A stretch of 64,000 nt of DNA from Betaproteobacteria bacterium (GCA_009927445.1 RFMZ01000285.1:4907-68906), one strand, 5' to 3'. Shown: positions 5,126 to 28,478, numbered from the stretch's first letter. Program-made: numbers and translations. Notes: a model not told the origin generated them from the letters alone.

Positions 5126-7389
5126 ATGAAATTAAAATTTCCAATTGTTGTGATTGATGAAGATTTTCGTTCGGAAAATATTTCCGGTTCTGGAATTCGT
5201 GACTTGGCTGAAGCAATTGAGTCTGAGGGTATGGAAGTTCTTGGGTTAACAAGCTATGGCGATTTGACTTCATTTGCCCAACAAGCCGCCCGTGCATCGT
5301 GTTTTATTTTGTCGATTGATGATGAGGAGTTTTTAGAATCTGATCACGGTGGGATTGAGGTCGTTATTGAAAGTCTTCGTAACTTTGTGCGCGCTGTGCG
5401 TAAGCGCAATGAAGACATACCGATATTTTTATACGGCGAAACCAAGACATCGCGCAACATTCCAAATGATATTTTGCGTGAGTTGCATGGCTTTATTCAC
5501 ATGAATGAAGACACTCCAGAATTTGTTGCTAGACATATTATTCGGGAGGCGAAAGTTTATTTAGACTCCTTAGCGCCGCCATTTTTTAAGTCATTAATCC
5601 ATTACGCGTCGGAAGGCTCGTATTCTTGGCATTGCCCTGGGCACTCTGGCGGAGTTGCCTTCTTAAAAAGTCCAGTTGGCCAAATATTCCATCAATTTTT
5701 TGGTGAGAACATGTTGCGTGCTGACGTTTGTAACGCGGTTGAGGAACTTGGGCAACTCCTGGATCATACAGGACCGGTGGCGGCTAGTGAACGCAATGCT
5801 GCGCGTATTTTTGGTGTAGACCATTTGTATTTTGTGACAAATGGCACCTCCACATCGAACAAAATTGTTTGGCACTCGACTGTTGCTGCAGGCGATATTG
5901 TGATTGTTGATCGGAATAGCCATAAGTCTGTTTTACATGCAATCATGATGATGGGCGCAATACCTGTGTTTTTGATGCCAACGCGAAATAATTTTGGCAT
6001 CATTGGCCCAATTCCTAAGGAGGAGTTTGAGTGGAGCAATATTCAAAAGAAGATTGACAACAATCCATTTATCAAAGATAAAAAAGCGTTGCCAAGAGTA
6101 CTTACTATTACCCAAAGCACCTATGACGGGATTGTATATAACGTTGAGATGATTAAATCGATGTTAGATGGTCGGGTAGATTCATTGCATTTTGATGAGG
6201 CTTGGTTACCACATGCGACTTTTCATGATTTTACAAAAATATGCACGCGGTCGGTAAAGACCGCGCTAGACCGAAAAAGAGTTTAGTCTTTTCTACGCAG
6301 TCTACGCATAAATTATTAGCTGGACTCTCGCAAGCATCGCAGATCTTAGTTCAGGACTCCGAGGATAGAAAATTAGATCCAACCTGTTTTAACGAGTCGT
6401 ATTTAATGCATACCTCGACGAGTCCGCAATATGCCATTATTGCCTCTTGCGACGTGGCGGCGGCGATGATGGAGCCACCAGGTGGCACTGCCCTAGTTGA
6501 GGAATCGATTGCGGAGGCGCTGGATTTTAGAAGGGCAATGCTCAAGGTTGACGAGGAGTATGGGGACGAATGGTGGTTTAAAGTTTGGGGTCCTGATTCG
6601 TTTGCAGATGAGGGCTTGGAGCAGTCTGATTGGATGCTTAGGTCTGAGGATAGTTGGCATAATTTTGGAAAACTAGCCGATGGTTTTAATATGTTGGATC
6701 CAATTAAGGCTACGATCGTCACACCTGGGATTGATATTGCTGGAAATTTTGGTGAAGAGGGTATTCCTGCGAGTATTGTCACCAAGTATTTAGCCGAGCA
6801 TGGGGTGATTGTCGAGAAGACTGGGCTTTATTCTTTTTTCATTATGTTTACGATTGGCATTACCAAAGGTCGCTGGAATACGCTCGTTGCAGAGTTGCAG
6901 CAGTTCAAGGATCATTATGACAAGAATATGCCTTTGTGGAGAGTTTTACCTGAGTTCGCGGCGAAGTATCCGCAGTATGAGCGGATTGGTTTAAAAGATA
7001 TCGCCAATAAAATTCATGCGTTTTATCGTGAGCACGATGTGGCTCGTATGACTACAGAGATGTATTTATCTGACATGATTCCTGCTATGCCACCCTCAGA
7101 AGCTTTTGCCAAAATGGCACACAGAGATATTGAGCGCGTTTCGATTGATGATTTAGAGGGCCGGATTACAGCGATGTTAGTTACGCCTTATCCACCAGGT
7201 ATTCCTTTACTGATTCCAGGCGAGCGATTTAATCAACGAATTGTGGACTATCTCCAATTTGCGCGTGACTTTAATGAAAAGTTTGCTGGTTTTGAAACAG
7301 ATATTCACGGCCTAGTTAAAGCAGAGCAACACGGTCGTAAAACTTACTTCGTCGATTGCGTGCGGGGTGCAGACGAGGGTGGAGTTTGA
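5126..7389 (+). pseudogene. Arginine/lysine/ornithine decarboxylase (wing-domain, PLP fold I), split by an apparent 1-nt deletion near 6230; may be a sequencing error rather than a true pseudogene
   Basis: ORF 5126-6286 (response-regulator-like wing domain, WHCPGHSGG, FVTNGTSTSN, HFDEAW) and ORF 6241-7389 (PLP Lys motif STQSTHKLL, PYPPGIPLL) join as HDFYKNMHAVG if one T is added to TTTT at 6229-6232. Confidence 0.88.
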
Positions 7390-17218: not shown

Positions 17219-18010
17219 ATGAATCATTCGAAAAGTGTTCTAGAGCAACCAATAGACTCTTTGGTCGGGGTCGACCCGAATCAACGTCGCTTAGGGGGAG
17301 TAGCTCGGCTATTTGGTGAAGACGGTTTTGCAGCCTTACAAACGGCCCATGTTTTAGTGGTTGGTTTGGGCGGGGTTGGCTCTTGGGCGGCCGAGGCACT
17401 GGTTAGAAGTGCAGTTGGTGAGATCACCCTGATGGATTATGACCATATTTCTATGAGTAACGTTAATCGTCAACTGCATGCCATTGAGGGTGATTTTGGT
17501 AAATCGAAAGTGGCAGCGATGGCAGATCGACTTTTAGCTATAAACCCTGATTTGAAGGTTCATCAGTTAGACCACTTTATCAAACCTGACAATGTTGGGC
17601 AGTATATTTTGCCGGGTATGGCTGTCCTTGATGCGACAGATGACTTATTGAGTAAGGTGGCGATGGCGGTTTGGTGCGTCAGACAAAATATCGCCTTTGT
17701 AATGAGTGGCGCTGCAGGTGGAAAGCTTGATCCCACTCAAATTAGTATCGATGACTTATCAAAGACTACGCATGATCCTATTCTGTCAAAAATTCGTGGG
17801 ATTTTAAGAAAATCATATGGCTTTGAGTCTGACCCTAAAAGGCGGATGCGGGTGCGAGTCGTTTATTCTGGAGAATCTAGGATGAGTCGCTCACAGGGCG
17901 GATTATCCTGCGCGGGTTATGGCTCGGCAGTGACTGTAACGGCTAGTTTTGGCTTTGTAGCGGCGGCAGAACTCATGAATCAAATTATGCGATCACATAA
18001 ATCGGTCTAA
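17219..18010 (+). CDS. tcdA: tRNA threonylcarbamoyladenosine dehydratase (ThiF/E1 family)
   Basis: VGLGGVGSWAAEAL, SNVNRQLHA, SGAAGGKLDPT and GYGSAVTVTASFG. Confidence 0.85.
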   Translation: MNHSKSVLEQPIDSLVGVDPNQRRLGGVARLFGEDGFAALQTAHVLVVGLGGVGSWAAEALVRSAVGEITLMDYDHISMSNVNRQLHAIEGDFGKSKVAAMADRLLAINPDLKVHQLDHFIKPDNVGQYILPGMAVLDATDDLLSKVAMAVWCVRQNIAFVMSGAAGGKLDPTQISIDDLSKTTHDPILSKIRGILRKSYGFESDPKRRMRVRVVYSGESRMSRSQGGLSCAGYGSAVTVTASFGFVAAAELMNQIMRSHKSV

Positions 18011-18460
18011 GATTTTTTTACTAAACTTATCGAGATTTTTTTTATTTCGAATTAAATATTGGATACCATTGGCATCGGTGATTAATAAATCCTCTTCACT
18101 GACCCGGCGAATATCTTGTTCAGATTTAAGCTTTAGGCGAGTTTTACCGCGATTGGTATGCACGTCCCAAATACTTGGTAGCGCAAAGGTATTGAGATGT
18201 ACTATTTTTTCAATTTCTGGGATGAACTCAAAAAAAGATAACTCAGTTTGGATTAACTCTTTGAGGCTATCTGGGAGTTGACTCAGATCGTTTAACCAGA
18301 CAAGCTCATGGCCATTGTGATCGACAATTGCAAACCCATGCGATGGATTGCTGATTGGAAAAGCCCGAATGATTCGGATATTTGGATGGACAATGCCCTG
18401 TGCATCGATCAAGCTAATTGCGCCAAATTGGTCTTTTGTGAGGTTGAAATTGATCATCAT
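17993..18460 (-). CDS. DUF1854-family protein (cyanophycin-locus associated)
   Basis: RAFPIS, F.PEIEKI and WDVHTNRGKTRLKL...DIRR pattern recalled for DUF1854; lies 9 nt downstream of the ABC exporter. Confidence 0.75.
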   Translation of the reverse strand: MMINFNLTKDQFGAISLIDAQGIVHPNIRIIRAFPISNPSHGFAIVDHNGHELVWLNDLSQLPDSLKELIQTELSFFEFIPEIEKIVHLNTFALPSIWDVHTNRGKTRLKLKSEQDIRRVSEEDLLITDANGIQYLIRNKKNLDKFSKKILDRFM

Positions 18461-18469
18461 GAGGTCTCA

Positions 18470-20746
18470 TTAAATCGCTTGTGCAATTTCTGCGGCATGC
18501 CTTGCTTGGGCTTGGTAGAGTTGATAGTATGCTCCTTGTGCGCTCATTAACTCGTCATGATTGCCAACTTCCACGATTTCGCCTTTATCTAATACGATGA
18601 GTCGGTCTGCTTTTCTCAGCGTTGACAAGCGATGTGCAATGGCTAAGGTGGTTCTACCTTGCACTAAATTGTCGAGGGCTTTTTGAATTTCTTTTTCGGT
18701 AGTTGTATCGACTGAGGAGGTGGCTTCGTCAAGGATTAAGATTTTAGGATCAATGAGTAGGGCTCTAGCGATGGAGATGCGCTGTCTTTCTCCACCCGAT
18801 AATGACTGTCCGCGCTCACCCACTAGAGAGTCATAGCCGAGTGGGAGGCGAAGGATAAACTCGTGGGCATTAGCGGCTTTTGCTGCTTGGATAACTTCTT
18901 CCTTGGTCGCAGTCGGTTTGCCATAGGCGATATTATCCGCAATCGTGCCAAAAAATAAAAAGGGTTCTTGGAGGACCATTCCAAATTGTTGGCGAAGCTC
19001 GGAGATAGCAATCGATCTGACATCCACGCCATCGATTTTGACTGAGCCATCGCTGACATCGTAGAAGCGGCAAATCAGGTTCACCAAGGTACTTTTCCCC
19101 GATCCACTATGGCCAACAAGGCCAATCATTTCGCCGGGTGCGATACTGAGCGTTATATTTTTCGTGACAGCGCGGTTGCCATAGCGAAAACCAACTTGAC
19201 TCAGCTCAATTTTTCCGCGCACGGGTTGGGTCATTGGCGTTGGGTTTGGAGTATCTGGCACACTGGATTGGTGGTCTAAGATATCGAAGATCCGTTTAGC
19301 TCCCGCGGCCGCTTTTTGGGTATGTGAGACGATCCGACTCATCGAGTCCATCCGCCCATAAAACCGACTGATATAAGCTAAAAAAGCCGTTAGTACACCA
19401 ACGGTTATTGTGTCATGCGCAACTTGATAGATCCCAAAGGCCCAAACGACTAAAAGTCCAACCTCTGTCAAAAGAGTGACGGTTGGGGCGAATGAGGACC
19501 AAATTCGATTGACACGATCATTGACTTCCAGATTACGTTGGTTGGCTAGAATAAAGCGGTTGTTTTCACGGTCCTCTTGGGCAAAGGCTTTAACTACGCG
19601 AATTCCGGGGATTGTATCGGATAGAACATTATTGACCTCAGACCAGTTACGGTCGACTTTTTCAAAGCCAAAGCGCAATTTGTCACGGACAAAATGAATC
19701 ATCCAAGCGATGAATGGCAGAGGCAGGAGGGTAACGGCAGCTAGGAGTGGATCAATACTAATGAGAATGACTGCGGTCATCAAGAGCATGAGCATATCAG
19801 TAAAAAAATCCAATAGATGTAACGACAAGAAAATACAGATCCGGTCTGTTTCATTGCCTATTCGAGTCATTAGGTCACCAGTTCTTTTCGCCCCGAAATA
19901 CTCTAGTGATAGATGCAAGAGGTGTTGAAATGTTTTGGTGCGAAGCTCCATACCTATCCGTTCACTAACCAGTGCCAAGATATATGTTTTCCACCAGCCA
20001 AGTCCCCAGGCACAGGATGCGGCAAGGAGTAGACCCGCAAGGTAGATACCTGCTAGTTCAAAGTCCATGACTTGGGTTTTTTGAAAAGGAATGAGCACAT
20101 CATCCATGAGTGGCATGGTGATATACGGCGGCACTAAGGTCGCGCCAGTAGAGAGGAGGGTTAGGATAAAACCGAGGATTAATTCCTTTTTATACGGCTT
20201 GGCAAATCTCCAAAGCTTAAAGAGGGTAAGGGTCGATGGGGGGATTTCTGTTTCGGGATCACAATACAGGCATTTTTCTTGGTCTTGGGCAATAGGGTTT
20301 TGACAAATTTGGCAGGTAAGGTGTGGCCCAATTTTTTCAAAGTCGAGTCGAATACTCAAGTCAAGTTGAGATAGCAGAACTGTACAGTTTTCCTTAAATT
20401 GGGTAATTGAGGGGTTTAGAGCAAGGGTGTGATGCCAAGCTTGAATACGGCCTTGTGGGCTCATTATTGTAAGGTGCCCAACACCGGCATGATCAGAATG
20501 TTGGAAATAAGCTCCAGGGGGGATCTGCCAAGTACCCTCTAGATGGCCGGACTCATGAATTTGATCGATGCGTGCAAAATCATGGGAGGTCTTTTCAGAG
20601 AGGATGAGGAGTGATTTTGCGAAGTGGAGTCGTTGGTTTAAATCGATTTCAACCCAAGTTGATAATGTGGATTCATGCGTTTTACACAATGCTTGCACTG
20701 CAGGATTTGATTGCCAGCGTTGGGGGAGCTGTATAGTAGAGATCAT
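18470..20746 (-). CDS. ABC exporter (fused TMD+NBD) with an extra ~170-aa N-terminal domain ending in CxxC-x10-CxxC
   Basis: Walker A GHSGSGKST, signature LSGGERQR, LILDEATS, H-loop IAHRL; six-TM exporter domain. Confidence 0.92.
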   Translation of the reverse strand: MISTIQLPQRWQSNPAVQALCKTHESTLSTWVEIDLNQRLHFAKSLLILSEKTSHDFARIDQIHESGHLEGTWQIPPGAYFQHSDHAGVGHLTIMSPQGRIQAWHHTLALNPSITQFKENCTVLLSQLDLSIRLDFEKIGPHLTCQICQNPIAQDQEKCLYCDPETEIPPSTLTLFKLWRFAKPYKKELILGFILTLLSTGATLVPPYITMPLMDDVLIPFQKTQVMDFELAGIYLAGLLLAASCAWGLGWWKTYILALVSERIGMELRTKTFQHLLHLSLEYFGAKRTGDLMTRIGNETDRICIFLSLHLLDFFTDMLMLLMTAVILISIDPLLAAVTLLPLPFIAWMIHFVRDKLRFGFEKVDRNWSEVNNVLSDTIPGIRVVKAFAQEDRENNRFILANQRNLEVNDRVNRIWSSFAPTVTLLTEVGLLVVWAFGIYQVAHDTITVGVLTAFLAYISRFYGRMDSMSRIVSHTQKAAAGAKRIFDILDHQSSVPDTPNPTPMTQPVRGKIELSQVGFRYGNRAVTKNITLSIAPGEMIGLVGHSGSGKSTLVNLICRFYDVSDGSVKIDGVDVRSIAISELRQQFGMVLQEPFLFFGTIADNIAYGKPTATKEEVIQAAKAANAHEFILRLPLGYDSLVGERGQSLSGGERQRISIARALLIDPKILILDEATSSVDTTTEKEIQKALDNLVQGRTTLAIAHRLSTLRKADRLIVLDKGEIVEVGNHDELMSAQGAYYQLYQAQARHAAEIAQAI

Positions 20747-20972
20747 TTGGCTTGAAAGAGTTTCATCGAAAAAGTATAGTGCAGACCTACCAACTTCTCC
20801 TAATTCATCTCAGATGCTTTAAAAAGGCCGTCGATTCGGGCAAATTAACGCCCTTTCAGATTGATATATTTGTCAACTTTTTTAATTAAAAAGAGTTAAG
20901 TAGTTATTACTCCTATGATTTCATATTTCTGGCCAATTTCACTTTTCAACTTCTGCGCTAAATCGTCACAAA

Positions 20973-23156
20973 ATGTCCCAACTTTTAGATAAAACTATCA
21001 AAATACTTCAAATGAAGCATATTCGGGGGCCGAACATGTGGTGTTGGGTCGAAGTTGTAGAGGCTTGGATAGATATTGGCGATTTAGAAGACTATCCTTC
21101 AGATAAGATTCCTGGTTTTTATGATCGGCTCGTGCAGGCCATGCCCTCTTTAATTGAACATCGTTGTAGTTATGAGGAGCGTGGTGGATTTTTGAAGCGG
21201 GTGGAAGAGGGAACTTGGCCTGTTCACATCATGGAACACCTGACACTTGAGTTACAGGGCTTAGCCGGTTTTGAAGGAGGTTTTGGTCGGGCGCGGGAAA
21301 CAAATGATCGAGGAATTTATAAGTTGATTGTGGCCTCACCGCATGTGCAGGTAACGCAGCAAGCGATCGAAGATGCCAAAGGGTTGTTGCTAGCTCTCAT
21401 CCAGGATCAGCCTTTTGATTTAAAGCCAGTCATAGATAATTTGCGAGAAATGATTGATGACTTATGTTTGGGGCCAAGTACGAGTTGTATTGTGCAGGCG
21501 GGCCATCAACAATCGATTCCGATGATTCGTTTATCCAAGGGTAACTTGGTGCAATTGGGTTATGGCGCTCGTCAAAAACGGATCTGGACTGCAGAAACAT
21601 CACAAACCAGCGCCATTGCTGAGACTATTTCACGGGATAAGGACTTAACAAAAACGCTCTTAGCGTCGGTTGGACTTCCTGTACCTGAAGGACAGTTGGT
21701 TGAGAGTGGGCTGCAGGCCTGGGAAGTTGCTCATGAAATCGGCTTACCAGTTGTGGTCAAGCCGCAAGATGGCAATCATGGTCGCGGAGTGTTTACAAAC
21801 TTACAATTCCAAGATGAAATTTTAGCGGCCTACGAAATAGCTAAAAATGAAGGAAGTGGCGTTCTAGTTGAAAAGTTTATTTTAGGAGACGAGCACCGTT
21901 TATTAGTAGTTGGCGATCACTTAGTGGCAGCTGCGAAGGGTGAGGCTTGCCGAGTAAAGGGTGACGGCCAACATACTATTTTAGAATTAATTGAGATTCA
22001 AATTAACTCTGACCCAAGACGAGGTACTACAGAGGATTACCCATTAAATCCTGTTCGGATTGATTCAATTGCCTTACTAGAACTGAAGGGGCAAGGTTTT
22101 GAGCCAAGCAGTATTCCGGCGTTCAATCATGAAGTTTTAATTCAGCGTAATGGTAATGTAGCTTTTGATGTAACAGACTTAGTGCATCCTTCGGTTGCTA
22201 AGCGGGTTGTTTTGGCTGCAAAAGTAGTTGGGTTAGACATTGCGGGTGTTGATTTGGTTGCAATGGATATATCTAGACCGCTCGAGGAGCAGGGGGCTGC
22301 GATTGTTGAAGTAAATGCTGGCCCTGGTTTATTAATGCATTTAAAGCCGGCTAAGGGTAAGCCTAGAGAAGTTGGTGAAGCGATCATTCGACATTTATTT
22401 CCGCAAGAAGATAATGGGCGTATTCCTATCATCGGGGTCAGTGGTAGTCGGGGAGCTGATGAAGTTGCACAAATCTGCGCTTACTTTTTTAACCTGGCCA
22501 ACCACTATGTTGGACTATCCTGTAAAAGGGGCTTATTTTTAAATCAAAGAATGGTGGAGGCCTCTAGAACCTCAGAATGGGATATTGGTAAACGTATTTT
22601 ATTAAGTCCAATGGTGAGCGCGGCAGTCTTAGAAACTACTGGAAAAAGTATTATCAATGAGGGTATGTCATATGACTTATGTCAAATTAGCATTGTTACG
22701 AATGTTGATCAGACCATTTTATTTCCTGAGGACTCGATCACTGAGGTCCGCCAACTTTTTTCTGTCTATAGGTCGCAGGTTGATGTTTTGCTACCAGGGC
22801 TTGGGGTTGCGATTCTTAACGGTGAGGATGAATTAGTCGTAGAGATGGCCGAGATCAATCCAGGCGCAGAAACCATTTTTTACGGGCTAGAGTTGTCTAG
22901 TCCATTCGTCATAGAGCATATTCAAAAAAACGGTAAGTCGGTTCAGGTCAAGGATAACAGTATCCTTTTGATGCAAGGTTCACAGGAGTTAGAGCGATTT
23001 GATTTGCAAAATTCAAGGTATTTAAAAGACCAGCAAAATACGAATCGCTTGTTGAATTTGATGGCTGGGGTGGGAGCTGCTTGGGCATCACATTTACCGA
23101 TGTCGACAATTGAGGTTGGGGTGAATTCATTTGCTCAAGAAGAGGTGGAGGCTTAA
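20973..23156 (+). CDS. Cyanophycin synthetase paralogue (CphA'-like): intact N domain and ATP-grasp, degenerate and shortened Mur-ligase domain
   Basis: IRGPNMW, HIMEHLTLELQ, CLGPST, VVVKPQDGNHGRGV and EVNAGPGL are present. The Mur P-loop reads VSGSRGAD instead of (T/S)GTNGKTT. Confidence 0.88.
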   Translation: MSQLLDKTIKILQMKHIRGPNMWCWVEVVEAWIDIGDLEDYPSDKIPGFYDRLVQAMPSLIEHRCSYEERGGFLKRVEEGTWPVHIMEHLTLELQGLAGFEGGFGRARETNDRGIYKLIVASPHVQVTQQAIEDAKGLLLALIQDQPFDLKPVIDNLREMIDDLCLGPSTSCIVQAGHQQSIPMIRLSKGNLVQLGYGARQKRIWTAETSQTSAIAETISRDKDLTKTLLASVGLPVPEGQLVESGLQAWEVAHEIGLPVVVKPQDGNHGRGVFTNLQFQDEILAAYEIAKNEGSGVLVEKFILGDEHRLLVVGDHLVAAAKGEACRVKGDGQHTILELIEIQINSDPRRGTTEDYPLNPVRIDSIALLELKGQGFEPSSIPAFNHEVLIQRNGNVAFDVTDLVHPSVAKRVVLAAKVVGLDIAGVDLVAMDISRPLEEQGAAIVEVNAGPGLLMHLKPAKGKPREVGEAIIRHLFPQEDNGRIPIIGVSGSRGADEVAQICAYFFNLANHYVGLSCKRGLFLNQRMVEASRTSEWDIGKRILLSPMVSAAVLETTGKSIINEGMSYDLCQISIVTNVDQTILFPEDSITEVRQLFSVYRSQVDVLLPGLGVAILNGEDELVVEMAEINPGAETIFYGLELSSPFVIEHIQKNGKSVQVKDNSILLMQGSQELERFDLQNSRYLKDQQNTNRLLNLMAGVGAAWASHLPMSTIEVGVNSFAQEEVEA

Positions 23157-25726
23157 TTGGAAGCAAGACGAATACGCGCTTTGCGCGGCCCGAACTTGTG
23201 GAGTCGACATACGGCGATTGAGGCAATTATTTTTTGTACGCCAAATGAATACAGTATTGAGGGAATCGAAAATTTTGAGACGCGTTTACGGGCACTATTT
23301 CCTCAACTTCGTTTAATGCGAGTTGGTAGTTATAACGAGTTAATCTCTATCGCGCATGTGTTGGAGCATGTCGTTTTGGGTTTACAGGCGCAAGCTGGGT
23401 GCCCGGTGACATTTAGTCGGACGGTAAAAACGAATGAAGAGGGGATTTATCAAGTCATCGTTGAATATAGTGAGGAAGTTGTTGGTCGAAGAGCCTTTCA
23501 TTTCGCAACCGAATTAATCACAGCGGCGTTGCAGGATATATCTTTCGATTTAGAAAGTGCTCTCAAGGAGTTGGTCAATATCGATGAAGATGTTCGTTTG
23601 GGCCCAAGCACTGGTTCTATTGTGCAAGCCGCTGTCGAAAAAAATATTCCATATCGCCGATTAACCCAAGGGAGTATGGTGCAGTTTGGGTGGGGTAGTA
23701 AACAAAAACGGATACAGGCAGCTGAAACCAGTGATACTAGCGCTATTGCAGAATCAATTGCACAAGATAAAGAATTAACCAAAGAATTACTGCATGCGGC
23801 TGGCGTATCTGTGCCCATGGGGCAGGTGGTAGATAATCCTGACGATGCTTGGAGGGTTGCGCAAAGCCTAGGGAAATCGGTCGTTGTCAAACCTAAGGAT
23901 GGTAATCAGGGTAAAGGAGTAGCTGTCAATATTCATTTAGAAGAGCAAGTTCGGATGGCTTTTATTGTGGCCCAACAATATGGCTCTAAAGTGATTGTTG
24001 AAAGATATATGCCAGGGCAAGATTTTCGACTACTAGTAGTTGGCGATGCCTTAGTCGCAGCTGCTAGGAGAGATCCCCCGCAGGTGATTGGTGATGGGGT
24101 GCATTCTATCAAGGACTTAGTCGATCAAATCAATTTAGATCCTTTACGTGGTGATGGGCATGCCACGGCACTGACTAAAATTCGGCTGATGAAATAGCGC
24201 TAGCGACTTTAGTAAAACAGAATTTGACTATTGACTCGATTCCAATTCAAGGTGCGCGGGTAGTCCTTCGAAATAATGCGAATCTCAGCACCGGCGGCAG
24301 TGCGACTGATGTGACAGAGGATGTGCATCCCGATCTAGCTGCTAGCGCGGTAACAGCTGCCAAGATGGTTGGTTTAGATATTTGTGGTGTGGATGTCGTC
24401 TGCGAAGATATTTATAGACCTTTTGAGGATCAAGGTGGCGGGGTGGTGGAAGTCAATGCGGCTCCTGGATTAAGAATGCACTTAAACCCATCGTATGGGA
24501 AAACTAGGCCGGTAGGAGATGCGATTATTTCTTTGATGTTTCCGAATTCCGATAACGGTAGGATACCTGTCGTTACTGTTTCTGGCACAAATGGCAAGAC
24601 GACAACAGTACGGTTAATTGCCCATCTGTTGCAAGCCCATGGTCATCGGGTCGGAATGACAACGACGGATGGTATTTATATTGAAAATGAGCGGATCGAT
24701 AGTGGGGATTGCAGCGGGCCAAAAAGCGCTCGCAACGTGTTGATGCATCCTGAGGTGGATGCAGCAGTTTTTGAAACTGCCCGCGGGGGTATTTTGCGTG
24801 AGGGTTTAGGTTTTGATTTTTGTGATGTGGCGGTGATTACCAATATTGGTGAAGGTGATCATTTAGGGATGTCTTATATTGAGACCGTGGAGGAATTAGC
24901 ACAGGTCAAGAGTGTAATCGTGCGGAATGTTTCCCCAACTGGGGTAGCGGTTTTAAATGCAACAGATCCGATTGTAGTGAAGATGGCTAAATCTTGTAAA
25001 GGGGAAGTGATTTTCTTTGGAGGGCACGCACATCACCCGGTGATTTCTGCACATCGAGCCCAGGGTAAGCGGGTAATATTCAAAGATGGGGATCATTTGG
25101 CGGCCGCTGTTGGGAGTGTGGTGGTGCACCGCATTGCATTACAAGAAATTCCGATCACGCAGGCTGGTCAGATCGGATTTCAGGTCGAAAACGTCATGAG
25201 TTCGGTTGCTGCAGCATGGTCTTTGGGGGTTGCTTGGCAAGCGATTGATCTAGCTTTAAAGGATTTTGTCTGTGATGGGCAAAATGCGCCGGGTAGATTT
25301 AATTTATTCAAACATCGCGGTGCGACTGTGATTGCTGATTATGGGCATAATCCAGATGCTATACGGGCTTTAGTTCAGGCGACGAATTGCATGCCAGCAA
25401 AACGTCGGCATGTTGTCATCAGTGGCGCTGGTGATCGACGAGACGAAGATATTCGACAGCAAACAAAGATTTTAGGAGAGGCCTTTGATTCGGTCATTCT
25501 TTATCAAGACCAATGTCAACGAGGCCGGGCGGATGGAGAGGTCATTGCACTTTTAAAACAAGGCTTACAAGGCACGACAAAAGTTCGAGAAGTGCAAGAA
25601 ATTCGCGGTGAGTTTTTAGCTATTGATACTGCTTTAGATCAACTACAAGCCGATGATTTATGTTTGATTTTAATTGACCAGGTAGAGCAGTCTTTAGATT
25701 ATTTAAATAAAGTGACCCAGCCCTGA
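23157..25726 (+). pseudogene. cphA: Cyanophycin synthetase CphA, split by an apparent 1-nt deletion near 24187; may be a sequencing error
   Basis: TTG start after a GGAGG SD. ORF 23157-24197 and ORF 24224-25726 join as TKIRLDEIALATLVKQNLTIDS if one base is restored in ctgat. LGPSTGSI, KPKDGNQGKGV, EVNAAPGLRMH, VSGTNGKTTT, ETARGGILREGL and DYGHNP motifs. Confidence 0.9.
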
Positions 25727-25747
25727 TCATTTAATGGATTACATGTT

Positions 25748-25781
25748 TGTAGGAAACTTCTGATTATTCTGTAGGAAGTTT
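25748..25781. promoter_or_regulatory. Candidate transcription-factor site upstream of the permease-ald operon
   Basis: Direct repeat tgtaggaa at 25748 and 25770 (22-bp period), overlapping the inverted repeat aaacttc-N14-gaagttt (25754-25781). Confidence 0.4.
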
Positions 25782-25903
25782 GAGGCTTTTAAAAATAAGG
25801 GTATTGATTTGCAAGTAATTTAATTCCCCTTATCTTTTTTTTTCGATAAAACTAGCATTTTTGGTATTTTATGGGGCTATTCAACATTCCCATACTTTTT
25901 TAG

Positions 25904-25941: not shown

Positions 25942-27366
25942 GTGGAAACACATCAACTAGAATCCGGCGATCAAGCAAATTGTTCGACCTCAGAGCCACA
26001 TGCATTAAAGAGACATTTAAAAGCTAGGCATATTCGTTTAATGGCATTAGGCTCGACGATCGGTGTGGGCTTATTTTTAGGTTCTGGCACCGCTATTGCG
26101 CAAGCTGGACCGTCAATTCTCTTAGGCTATTTAATCGCCGGTTTAATGGCTTTTATCGTTTTAAGAGCTCTTGGTGAGATGGCTGTTCATAACCCAGTTG
26201 CTGGTTCTTTTGCTCAGTATGCGCATAGTTATATTAGCCCCTTAGCTGGTTATTTAGTTGGTTGGGGCTATTGGTTTTATTGGGTGATTGTTGGGATAGC
26301 AGAAGTCACTGCGGTTGGAATTTATATGAGTATGTGGTTTCCAGACATACCTCAGTGGCTTTGGGCAATTAGTTCATTGCTCTTTATGGGTGGATTAAAT
26401 TTTATTGCGGTGCGATTGTTTGGAGAGTTTGAATTTTGGTTTGCCTTAATTAAGGTGGTTGCAATTGTTGTCATGATTGGGATAGGTTTGGCAGTCATAT
26501 TTTTTGGACTTTCTAATGGCGGGGTGCCCCTTGGAATTGCTAATTTATGGCAACATGGCGGATTTTTCCCAACTGGGATTTCAGGTTTTTTATTGTCGAT
26601 ACAAATGGCTGTTTTTGCCTATGTTGGTATTGAGATGATTGGTTTATCTGCTGGCGAGACAGAAAATCCCGAAAAAACGATTCCTATTGCAATTGACTCA
26701 CTGATTGTTCGCATCTTAGTGTTTTATGGTGGTGCTTTATTTGTGATTCTATCGATCTATCCTTGGAATGAGGTCAGTGGCCAAGGTAGTCCATTTGTTG
26801 CTATGTTTGAAAGAATGGGATTACGAGAAGCTGCTGGGATTGTGAACTTTGTCGTGATTACTGCAGCCCTGTCCTCATGTAATGCCGGAATATTTAGTGG
26901 TGGTCGATTGTTATATGGCCTATCTTTAAACGGTTATGCGCCATTCAGAATGAAAAAATTATCGGCGGCAGGAGTTCCAATCCTAGCCATATTAGCAACA
27001 GTGAGTACAGCAATTTTTGGGGCATTCTTAAACTATTTTGTTCCCGAAAAGGCCTTTATTTGGGTGACATCAGCCGTCACGTTTATTGGCTTATTAGTGT
27101 GGGTAGCTATCTTAGTAACACAGTTGAAATTTAGAAAAAAACTGAGCAGTTTTCAAATCGCTCAGTTAAGTTACAAAAGCTGTGGCTTTCCGTATGCCTC
27201 TTATCTAGGCTTAGGTTTTATTGGGGCAGTATTTGTCATGATGTGTTTTTCATCAGAGACGAGGGTTGGTATATACGTTGGAATTCCAATCCTATTGCTA
27301 TTAATTTCAGTTTTTTATTTGTTTAGATTAAACCGTATTCAACATTCTCAACAGGAGCAAGCATGA
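25942..27366 (+). CDS. Amino-acid permease, APC/AAT family (CycA/ProY/AroP-like)
   Basis: RHIRLMALGSTIGVGLFLGSG, GEFEFWFALIKV, FAYVGIEMIG and NFVVITAALSSCNAG; 12 TM helices. Confidence 0.93.
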   Translation: METHQLESGDQANCSTSEPHALKRHLKARHIRLMALGSTIGVGLFLGSGTAIAQAGPSILLGYLIAGLMAFIVLRALGEMAVHNPVAGSFAQYAHSYISPLAGYLVGWGYWFYWVIVGIAEVTAVGIYMSMWFPDIPQWLWAISSLLFMGGLNFIAVRLFGEFEFWFALIKVVAIVVMIGIGLAVIFFGLSNGGVPLGIANLWQHGGFFPTGISGFLLSIQMAVFAYVGIEMIGLSAGETENPEKTIPIAIDSLIVRILVFYGGALFVILSIYPWNEVSGQGSPFVAMFERMGLREAAGIVNFVVITAALSSCNAGIFSGGRLLYGLSLNGYAPFRMKKLSAAGVPILAILATVSTAIFGAFLNYFVPEKAFIWVTSAVTFIGLLVWVAILVTQLKFRKKLSSFQIAQLSYKSCGFPYASYLGLGFIGAVFVMMCFSSETRVGIYVGIPILLLLISVFYLFRLNRIQHSQQEQA

Positions 27367-28478
27367 TTATTGGAATTCCAAAGGAAATTAAAAACCAAGA
27401 GTATCGCGTTGGTCTAACACCAAGCCAGGTTAAAAATTTAGTCGGTTCAGGACATCAAGTTTTAGTCGAGAAAACTGCAGGTAATGGGGTTGGATTTGAT
27501 GATGATAGTTATCAAACTGCAGGGGCAGTCATCATTGAAGCGCCAGACGAAATTTTTAAAGAGGCTCAAATGATCGTTAAAGTGAAAGAGCCACAGAATA
27601 GTGAGCTTGCGATGCTTCAGCCAGAGCAAATCTTATTTACCTACCTACATTTAGCCCCAGATATTGAGCAGACAAATAATTTATTAGCGACAGGAGTTAC
27701 TGCCATTGCGTATGAGACAGTCTCCTTAGGGAATGGTTGTTTACCCCTTTTAGCACCAATGAGTGAAGTGGCTGGTCGGATGTCGATTCAAGCCGCAGCG
27801 CATCATTTGGAAAAAAGACAACATGGTAAGGGCGTTCTCATGGCCGGAATACCTGGTGTTGATTCGGCTCGGGTACTTATTTTAGGAGCTGGCATTGTCG
27901 GTAAAAATGCACTTCAAATGGCAATTGGAATGGGGGCGCAAGTCACTATTGTTGACAAAAATATGGATCGCTTACGCGACCTAGATTTAATTTATGGTAA
28001 CCGCATACAAACGGCATATGCTGACCAGGCGGCTATAGAGCGTTTATTTCCTCAAGTAGATGTGGTGATTGGGGGAGTATTGATTCCTGGAGGGACGGCG
28101 CCACAACTATTAAAGCGCGAGCACTTAGGTGTGATGCAAGATGGGGCAGTAATTGTCGATGTAGCCATTGATCAAGGAGGATGTTTTGAGACATCTCACG
28201 CAACAACGCATGATGAACCCACATTTATAGTTGATGGGATTGTACATTATTGTGTAGCAAATATGCCAGGAGCAGTTCCTCGAACATCGACACTTGGGTT
28301 GACTAATGCGACTTTCCCGTACATCAGTTCCCTTGCCAATTTTGGGCTACGGCAAGTAGTGCAGGGAAATGATGCATTGCGAAGAGGGGTAACATCTCAT
28401 CAGGGTTATTTAACCTGTAATGCTGTAGCCAAGTCGCAACACAGACAATGTATGGCTATAGGAGATTTAATTCATTAG
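27363..28478 (+). CDS. ald: Alanine dehydrogenase
   Basis: IGIPKEIKNQEYRVGLTP, VKVKEP, FTYLHLA, LAPMSEVAGRMS, DVAIDQGGCFETS and CVANMPGAVPRTST; ATGA coupling to the permease. Confidence 0.96.
   Translation: MIIGIPKEIKNQEYRVGLTPSQVKNLVGSGHQVLVEKTAGNGVGFDDDSYQTAGAVIIEAPDEIFKEAQMIVKVKEPQNSELAMLQPEQILFTYLHLAPDIEQTNNLLATGVTAIAYETVSLGNGCLPLLAPMSEVAGRMSIQAAAHHLEKRQHGKGVLMAGIPGVDSARVLILGAGIVGKNALQMAIGMGAQVTIVDKNMDRLRDLDLIYGNRIQTAYADQAAIERLFPQVDVVIGGVLIPGGTAPQLLKREHLGVMQDGAVIVDVAIDQGGCFETSHATTHDEPTFIVDGIVHYCVANMPGAVPRTSTLGLTNATFPYISSLANFGLRQVVQGNDALRRGVTSHQGYLTCNAVAKSQHRQCMAIGDLIH

Follow-up and report, generated by a model that had tools for sequence, protein, structure and literature searches.

Cyanophycin synthetases of the CphA1 type, represented by SuCphA1 (7LG5) and TeCphA1 (7WAC), unite three active sites in one enzyme of N-G-M architecture: an N-domain peptidase (C59, H79, E82, and H83), a G domain (H267, R309, R323, N394, S396, and R458), and an M domain (P-loop, D585, and H586) (PMC9262961, PMC9427784). 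In canonical storage clusters, the synthetase gene cphA is accompanied by the cyanophycinase gene cphB. Among 903 beta-proteobacterial genomes with cphA1, a recognizable cyanophycinase was found in only 2.8%, which the authors called "unanticipated" (PMC10206079). In Acidovorax 3H11 and Cupriavidus basilensis 4G11, Price et al. described a cluster of two synthetase genes, cphA′ and cphA, with genes for an ATP-binding cassette (ABC) transporter and a DUF1854 protein; the four genes are cofit and show motility and stress phenotypes, and export was already put forward as a hypothesis for this cluster in 2016-2018 (10.1101/072470). Here we analyze the same cluster in a 64,000-nucleotide stretch of DNA from a Betaproteobacteria bacterium (GCA_009927445.1, RFMZ01000285.1:4907-68906), hereafter the window, with positions counted from its first letter.

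In the window, a minus-strand unit encoding the ABC half-transporter (18470-20746, 758 amino acids [aa]) and the DUF1854 protein (17993-18460, 155 aa) is divergent from a plus-strand unit of cphA′ (20973-23156, 727 aa) and cphA (23157-25726, ~855 aa on read-through of a one-base loss). The list of open reading frames and the Pfam and NCBIfam scans bear out all four coordinates of this layout, which had been proposed in a first-pass annotation of the sequence. The DUF1854 protein matches PF08909 (E = 1e-41, 142 bits against a cut-off of 26.8) and NF052234 (190 bits against 150), and the ABC protein matches NF052233 (1258.4 bits against 880); cphA′ aligns to positions 1-718 of the 871 in PRK14016, and cphA covers that profile to position 864. 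The two families of accessory proteins are NCBIfam equivalogs named "cyanophycin metabolism-associated ABC transporter" (NF052233) and "cyanophycin metabolism-associated DUF1854 family protein" (NF052234). The system is already known and catalogued, and the idea of export raised in the first-pass annotation repeats a published hypothesis. The locus is an ordinary, typical copy of the conserved Burkholderiales module cphA′-cphA/ABC-DUF1854, with no essential difference from the Acidovorax and Cupriavidus clusters of Price et al.; what sets the window copy apart is its low-GC freshwater host and an assembly-specific one-base loss in cphA. Judged from the sequence, a role in export rather than storage would be the best reading of this module, and we hold it with slightly better than even confidence.

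Co-inheritance of the module and absence of cyanophycin catabolism

The host is a low-GC (~44%) freshwater relative of Polynucleobacter, and the nearest named relatives of its DUF1854 protein belong to that genus (~62% identity), so the order was taken to be Burkholderiales in the GTDB sense. We surveyed an even sample of 201 genomes of this order, with a threshold of E <= 1e-80 for the cphA family. DUF1854 was present in 63 genomes and a cphA-family gene in 70, and every one of the 63 DUF1854 genomes carried cphA. Nearly all of these 63 have a full-length cphA and a copy ending near profile position 720, with an ABC-sized gap to DUF1854. Conversely, six of the seven cphA genomes that lack DUF1854 have a cyanophycinase gene (~250 bits) directly adjoining cphA. 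A cphB-family match above the cut-off occurs in only 7 of the 63, in each case away from the DUF1854 locus. One genome (G463) holds both cluster types at separate sites, the cphB-linked one (L056, G463:C1:5335000-5349000) with two full-length cphA genes. These counts show cphB-linked and DUF1854-linked clusters to be alternative architectures within one order. The four-gene unit without cyanophycinase that the first-pass annotation had recognized is therefore co-inherited in Burkholderiales. That annotation had made its case depend on joint inheritance of DUF1854 and the ABC gene with cphA, which holds throughout the order sample and breaks down outside the order, where ABC-DUF1854 pairs occur without cphA.

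The same four genes were found in all 41 clusters fetched from the order, mostly in the same divergent layout, and the ABC and DUF1854 genes adjoin in all 41. In two clusters (L030 and L031) the four genes are all co-directional, and in another (L032; G340:C17, between 5009 and 12741) ~7.7 kb of other DNA lies between ABC-DUF1854 and cphA′-cphA.

The source genome is a 3.0-Mb draft in 293 contigs, estimated at 95.6% complete, and its cphA-family genes are confined to this locus. A canonical cphB-cphA storage cluster includes a cyanophycinase, whereas neither the window nor the whole genome contains a match to the cyanophycinase family TIGR02069. Whole-genome searches likewise returned no other S51 peptidase (PF03575), no IadA (TIGR01975), no IaaA (PF01112), and no AstE/AspA-type enzyme, the family of CphZ (PF04952). 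The lack of cyanophycinase and isoaspartyl dipeptidase first noticed in the window thus extends to the entire genome. These absences bear directly on the possibility of ordinary cytoplasmic nitrogen storage, in which the host would make normal cyanophycin and degrade it with an unrecognized cyanophycinase isozyme, the pump being peripheral (export of surplus arginine or dipeptide, or quality control). For cphA1 genomes without cphB, this is the reading preferred in the cyanophycin field, and the authors of the Sci Rep 2023 survey favor an unrecognized cyanophycinase (PMC10206079); CphA also retains every M-domain and Asp-binding residue. However, all four known classes of catabolic enzyme are missing from a largely complete genome, cphB-linked and DUF1854-linked clusters are alternatives within the order, and cofitness ties the pump genes to the synthetases, their phenotypes being in motility and stress rather than nitrogen (10.1101/072470). 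We consider storage of this kind unlikely.

Division of active sites between CphA′ and CphA

We read the motif states of both synthetases from alignments to SuCphA1 and TeCphA1 and across the 41 clusters. In CphA′, the Cx19HxxEH peptidase motif of the N domain is intact (EHRC...HIMEH); this motif, used as a criterion for CphA1, occurs in ~83% of CphA1s and is typical rather than obligatory. The ATP-grasp core of CphA′ is also intact (VVVKP, DGNHGRG, EHRLLVV, and EVNAGPG), including the equivalents of K261, H267, R309, and E450/N452. Its Asp-binding elements are lost through R323G, a five-residue deletion in the large loop that includes N394 and S396, and R458L (PGLLMH), and the replacements at the Asp site are conserved in all 40 intact orthologues (QRNGNV-AFDV and PGLLMH). 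By its motifs, the M domain of CphA′ is dead, with a P-loop reading GSRGAD, T-I in place of D585-H586, and ~150 C-terminal residues (the C-terminal subdomain) missing. Some lineages have a full-length CphA′ that keeps the P-loop and has lost ETARGG, and such forms look like intermediates.

CphA presents the complementary state. Its N-domain motif is lost, with no Cys, a deletion, and the remnant HVLEH. Its Asp site is kept, with R309, R323 (RR), NANLSTGG, and R458 (PGLRMH), and the M domain retains every motif (GTNGKTTT, ETARGG, and GDHLG). The G loop reads DGNQGKG, an H267Q replacement, and Gln occupies this position in 38 of the 41 orthologues. By comparison, three cphB-linked CphA1s of the order (L054, L055, and L057) carry all motifs in one protein. 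The window pair therefore shares the N-G-M architecture of canonical CphA1, and CphA shares all of its M-domain and all of its Asp-binding residues, but the three active sites are divided over two paralogues, with H267Q in CphA and a pump attached. In a FastTree phylogeny of 89 sequences, CphA (support 0.97) and CphA′ (1.0) form sister clades whose joint node (1.00) stands apart from the cphB-linked enzymes. Together with the complementary motif losses, this topology indicates a single duplication followed by complementary loss.

An experiment on canonical enzymes offers a parallel. SuCphA1 with dead G and M domains, supplied in trans, makes the motif-less TmCphA1 primer independent (PMC9262961), an arrangement that the CphA′/CphA pair appears to mirror. 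Because Cx19HxxEH is kept in CphA′ and lost in CphA, primer handling would more plausibly fall to CphA′ than to DUF1854.

We also considered whether CphA′ could be a CphA2. Cyanobacterial CphA2 (7TA5 and 8FXH) resembles CphA′ in having a truncated, inactive M domain, with only the ATP-grasp site left for ligation; its N domain is noncatalytic and its large loop (N393 and S395) is needed for activity (PMC10273328). CphA′ was rejected as a CphA2, as its large loop is deleted, its N-domain motif is intact, its sequence lies far nearer to CphA1 (E = 1.6e-130 to 7LG5, versus 1e-54 to CphA2), and its host is a beta-proteobacterium.

The meaning of H267Q in CphA is less direct. His267 is catalytically important in both TeCphA1 and SuCphA1 (PMC9427784). 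In the cphB-linked cluster L056, both cphA genes have Gln at this position and degenerate N-domain motifs, and there the replacement arose independently of the CphA clade. A second case comes from a gammaproteobacterium outside the order (G129, cluster L049), in which cphA′ (G129:C45, ~5233-7215) has decayed, with its P-loopG and Mg-site motifs lost and an internal TAA, whereas the adjoining genes for the Gln-type CphA, ABC, and DUF1854 proteins are undamaged. Since the other three genes are kept next to a decayed cphA′, CphA′ is dispensable in some lineages. Given the independent Gln in L056 and the Gln in the sole intact synthetase of G129, a CphA with Gln267 may keep its activity, and we rejected the view that H267Q proves the G domain dead.

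The conserved replacements in CphA′ also allow a reading in which the product is not cyanophycin. CphA′ would then couple the activated end of the chain not to free Asp but to another nucleophile, forming a cap, an anchor, or a closed ring, and the pump would read the modified end much as O-antigen ABC transporters read a chain terminator. In 40 CphA′ sequences the ATP-grasp catalytic core is strictly conserved and all three Asp-recognition elements have been swapped for equally conserved residues, a pattern expected of a new function rather than of decay. According to Price et al., moreover, the CphA/CphA′ pair of Cupriavidus necator made no cyanophycin in earlier work, and its product may be a different polymer that scatters light (10.1101/072470). 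Set against this, the cluster encodes no candidate acceptor, and G129 retains CphA, ABC, and DUF1854 with a decayed CphA′, which implies that CphA′ is not always needed. We infer this alternative purely from residue patterns and regard it as improbable.

The ABC pump and its DUF1854 partner

The ABC protein is an exporter-type half-transporter of the MsbA/HlyB kind, with a transmembrane domain at residues 189-464 (PF00664) and a nucleotide-binding domain at residues 529-677 (PF00005). It aligns to positions 15-749 of the 766 in NF052233 and, like the proteins that this family describes, is an exporter-type half-transporter extended at its N-terminus and encoded next to cphA genes. Its next-best families are MsbA, TAP, HlyB, HepA, and glucan exporters, and it is 58-68% identical across the 41 clusters of the order. 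No Pfam family matches its first 170 residues. In an AlphaFold model of this region, with a predicted local distance difference test (pLDDT) score of 86, seven strands precede a long helix, after which come a small ribbon and the first transmembrane helix. The top 50 VIA-align matches to this head all belong to the PH/EVH1/PTB/Ran-binding superfold, with Z scores of 8.0-10.4 across 86-126 residues, the best being 3qwm_A (Z 10.4, root mean square deviation 2.9, 110 residues aligned). On this model the pump has a cytoplasmic N-terminal domain, predicted to be PH-like, at residues ~25-137 (20336-20674, minus strand). Between it and the first transmembrane helix lies a zinc-ribbon-like CxxC-x10-CxxC motif (residues 145-162; 20261-20314, minus strand), whose CPxC...CPxC form is kept in most of 44 aligned homologues and absent in a few (L038, L043, and L051).

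Among described transporters, the HlyB-type systems, the NdvA/ChvA glucan exporters, and the Wzt-type transporters offer the closest analogies, being of exporter type with an extra cytoplasmic module that could dock a substrate and a polymer made in the cytoplasm. The head of HlyB-type proteins is C39-like, whereas that of the window pump appears to be PH-like with a zinc ribbon, and the likeness to the Wzt O-antigen transporter would be functional only. Unlike HlyB-type systems, the window pump has no partner nearby: no membrane-fusion, outer-membrane, or adaptor gene was found among its neighbors in the window.

Exporter-fold (type IV) ABC proteins, some of them with cytoplasmic N-terminal domains, include importers. 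It is thus conceivable that the ABC-DUF1854 pair is an importer built on an exporter fold, which would take up environmental cyanophycin fragments or primers for a primer-dependent CphA; CphA lacks the primer-making motif, and the host lives in freshwater communities with cyanobacteria. We give this very little credence, as CphA′ has an intact primer-making motif that would make import unnecessary, a periplasmic binding protein and a dipeptidase are not present, and the nearest curated families of the pump are all exporters.

We asked whether DUF1854 belongs with the synthetases or with the pump. Of 300 genomes sampled evenly from the host's class, only 7 carry DUF1854, five of them outside the order. 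Four of these five, all gammaproteobacterial (G257, G099, G002, and G057), have no cphA anywhere in the genome. In three of them (G257, L050; G099, L051; and G002, L052), an ABC gene is directly followed by DUF1854; the DUF1854 match in G057 is a partial fragment with no adjoining ABC gene. NF052233 is the best match to the three ABC proteins over their whole length, at 560-650 bits, under the cut-off. The neighbors of these cphA-less pairs are unrelated (an HTH_34 regulator, NnrS, a GNAT Acetyltransf_6 protein, EamA, a leucine-rich repeat protein, and a periplasmic binding protein). Furthermore, one metagenomic protein (P0058) consists of an ABC protein of the same type with DUF1854 joined at its C-terminus; it was among only three returned by a search for longer, fused DUF1854 proteins, a number that is weak evidence on how frequent such fusions are. 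Given the pairs without cphA and this natural fusion, DUF1854 is an accessory of the pump and not of the synthetase. The same observations speak against the role of primer-handling partner of CphA that the first-pass annotation had offered for DUF1854.

The other two fused proteins, both from short metagenomic contigs, join DUF1854 to a JmjC/cupin domain (P0056) and to EF-P KOW and OB domains (P0057); they may be gene-calling artifacts or real fusions hinting at a peptide- or protein-binding role. PF08909 also has matches in the control genome, that of Sulfolobus acidocaldarius.

A co-fold of the window ABC and DUF1854 proteins scored 0.40 (best control 0.00), which is weak support; the runs agree on at least 97% of contacts, and the partner pLDDT is at least 74. 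In calibration, 58 of 80 solved complexes reached the mark, as did 2 of 110 mismatched pairs, but scores of 0.60 or lower came from only 7 of the 80 and from both mismatches. If the co-fold is read with the prior given by the shared operon, the fusion, and cofitness data from the literature, a physical complex of the two proteins is likely. The AlphaFold model of DUF1854 alone (pLDDT 93) consists of two small halves, residues 1-78 and 79-155, each of a beta-sheet plus helix. The DUF1854 sequence had no meaningful match among Protein Data Bank (PDB) chains (best E = 0.17), and with Foldseek no PDB entry matched the model at E <= 0.001, the top rows being polo-box domains at TM scores of ~0.2. 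VIA-align placed a DUF1285 protein first (Z 5.6), each half also matched PH domains (Z 3-4), and all of these values lie in the noise range. For DUF1854, the label "tandem PH-like" therefore serves only to describe the model. BLASTP found no similarity between the N-terminal domain of the ABC protein and DUF1854.

A proposed export pathway and its setting

Considering the gene content, co-inheritance, active-site states, folds, and intact genes described here, we infer a product, a cooperation between the paralogues, a substrate, and a direction of transport. An ancestral CphA1 would have duplicated, and its two copies would have shared out the three active sites. CphA would act as the polymerase, with an arginine-adding M domain and an Asp-binding G site that is complete with Gln in place of His267, having lost the primer-making N-domain peptidase. 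CphA′, with its peptidase motif, ATP-grasp core, rebuilt substrate pocket, and dead M domain, would supply primers or processing in trans, and perhaps carries out another kind of ligation at the end of the chain. The Asp/Arg polymer or oligomer so made would not be kept as a nitrogen reserve, given that no known degradative enzyme is encoded. It would instead be passed to a homodimeric exporter-type ABC pump, which would carry it over the inner membrane to the periplasm or envelope, with the PH-like/zinc-ribbon head and DUF1854 as docking or gating parts of the pump. We advance the scheme in this complete form only tentatively: an obligate cooperation of CphA as polymerase with CphA′ as primer maker, processor, or end modifier, and export of an Asp/Arg isopeptide to the periplasm or envelope by a PH-headed pump with DUF1854.

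Several points weigh against this scheme. The C. necator pair, as noted above, made no cyanophycin, and no export process is known in the cyanophycin literature (PMC9974463). Since His267 is important for catalysis in canonical enzymes, the H267Q G domain of CphA could be inactive. The substrate class of the pump is not intrinsically cyanophycin, as the ABC-DUF1854 pairs without cphA demonstrate; the co-fold support for the predicted ABC-DUF1854 complex is weak, and the type IV fold of the pump is also that of some importers. Finally, the host may encode a cyanophycinase of an unrecognized kind. A search of the available literature library found no more recent experimental work on export or on the synthetase pair of Burkholderiales.

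The window sequence of cphA contains a one-base loss at 24186/24187 (plus strand) that splits the gene into frames of 346 and 500 aa. We aligned contigs of four runs to positions 17900-25800; those of one run (X9) barely overlap this stretch, and no conclusion was drawn from them. Two DNA assemblies from different freshwater metagenome studies (X1 and X4) have an extra T behind 24186, and an RNA-library contig (X14) has an extra G behind 24187; either insertion brings back K-I-R-L-D-E-I-A-L, the conserved CphA sequence. These three independent assemblies are at least 99% identical, and two complete congeneric genomes (G390 and G481) have an unbroken cphA of 856 aa. Because the extra base is present in all three assemblies and cphA is unbroken in G390 and G481, the gene is intact in the population, and the break is an assembly error or a private variant of this draft. 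A locus in decay, with a real frameshift and a system that no longer functions in this organism, would account for the two frames in the window; it is highly improbable given the extra base in the three assemblies, the intact state of all remaining CphA residues and motifs, and the origin of the window in a fragmented draft.

Runs dated 2016-2025 from 15 metagenome studies of freshwater or lakes, RNA libraries among them, contain a near-identical copy of positions 17900-25800 (0.94-0.96 of sampled words). Its presence in so many freshwater and lake runs shows the host to be a widespread freshwater bacterium. RNA-library contigs span cphA′-cphA (20922-25800) and part of the ABC gene, which is no more than a hint that these genes are expressed.

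Within the minus-strand unit, the ABC stop codon and the DUF1854 start are separated by 9 nucleotides (nt), and in the plus-strand unit cphA starts with TTG immediately after the cphA′ stop codon, with the Shine-Dalgarno sequence GAGGTGGAGG ahead of it. The 226-bp spacer between the divergent units (20747-20972) probably carries the promoters of both, individual sites being only candidates. It contains one sigma-70-like candidate site (20752-20780, plus strand), promoter-like counts in the region are no higher than in shuffled sequence, and terminator-like sites in the region show no excess over shuffled sequence. The sigma-54 consensus TGGCAC-N5-TTGC was not found in the spacer with up to two mismatches. 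The locus is flanked by housekeeping genes identified by Pfam and NCBIfam: tcdA, pdxH, an amino-acid permease, and alanine dehydrogenase. The tcdA gene (17219-18010, plus strand) is convergent with DUF1854, and their 3′ ends share 18 nt (17993-18010). On the 3′ side of the cph cluster, at 25942-28478, the end of the permease gene (nearest to ProY/ThrP-type APC transporters) overlaps the start of alanine dehydrogenase by 4 nt (27363-27366); these two genes probably form an alanine-uptake and catabolism operon that is not related to the cph cluster.

The window adds no new system but one more clean, typical example of a cluster that is abundant in freshwater bacteria, and it supports a division of labor between the paralogues that is directly testable in vitro. 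The cluster is an obvious candidate answer both to the missing export process and to the near absence of cyanophycinase in beta-proteobacteria. If true, the proposed pathway would be the first one known to export cyanophycin-like polymers, and it would explain why cyanophycinase is missing from ~97% of beta-proteobacterial cphA1 genomes. If export is real, a secreted form would be of interest to biopolymer production, and cyanophycin-like polymers would be components of the envelope or periplasm and not only nitrogen stores.

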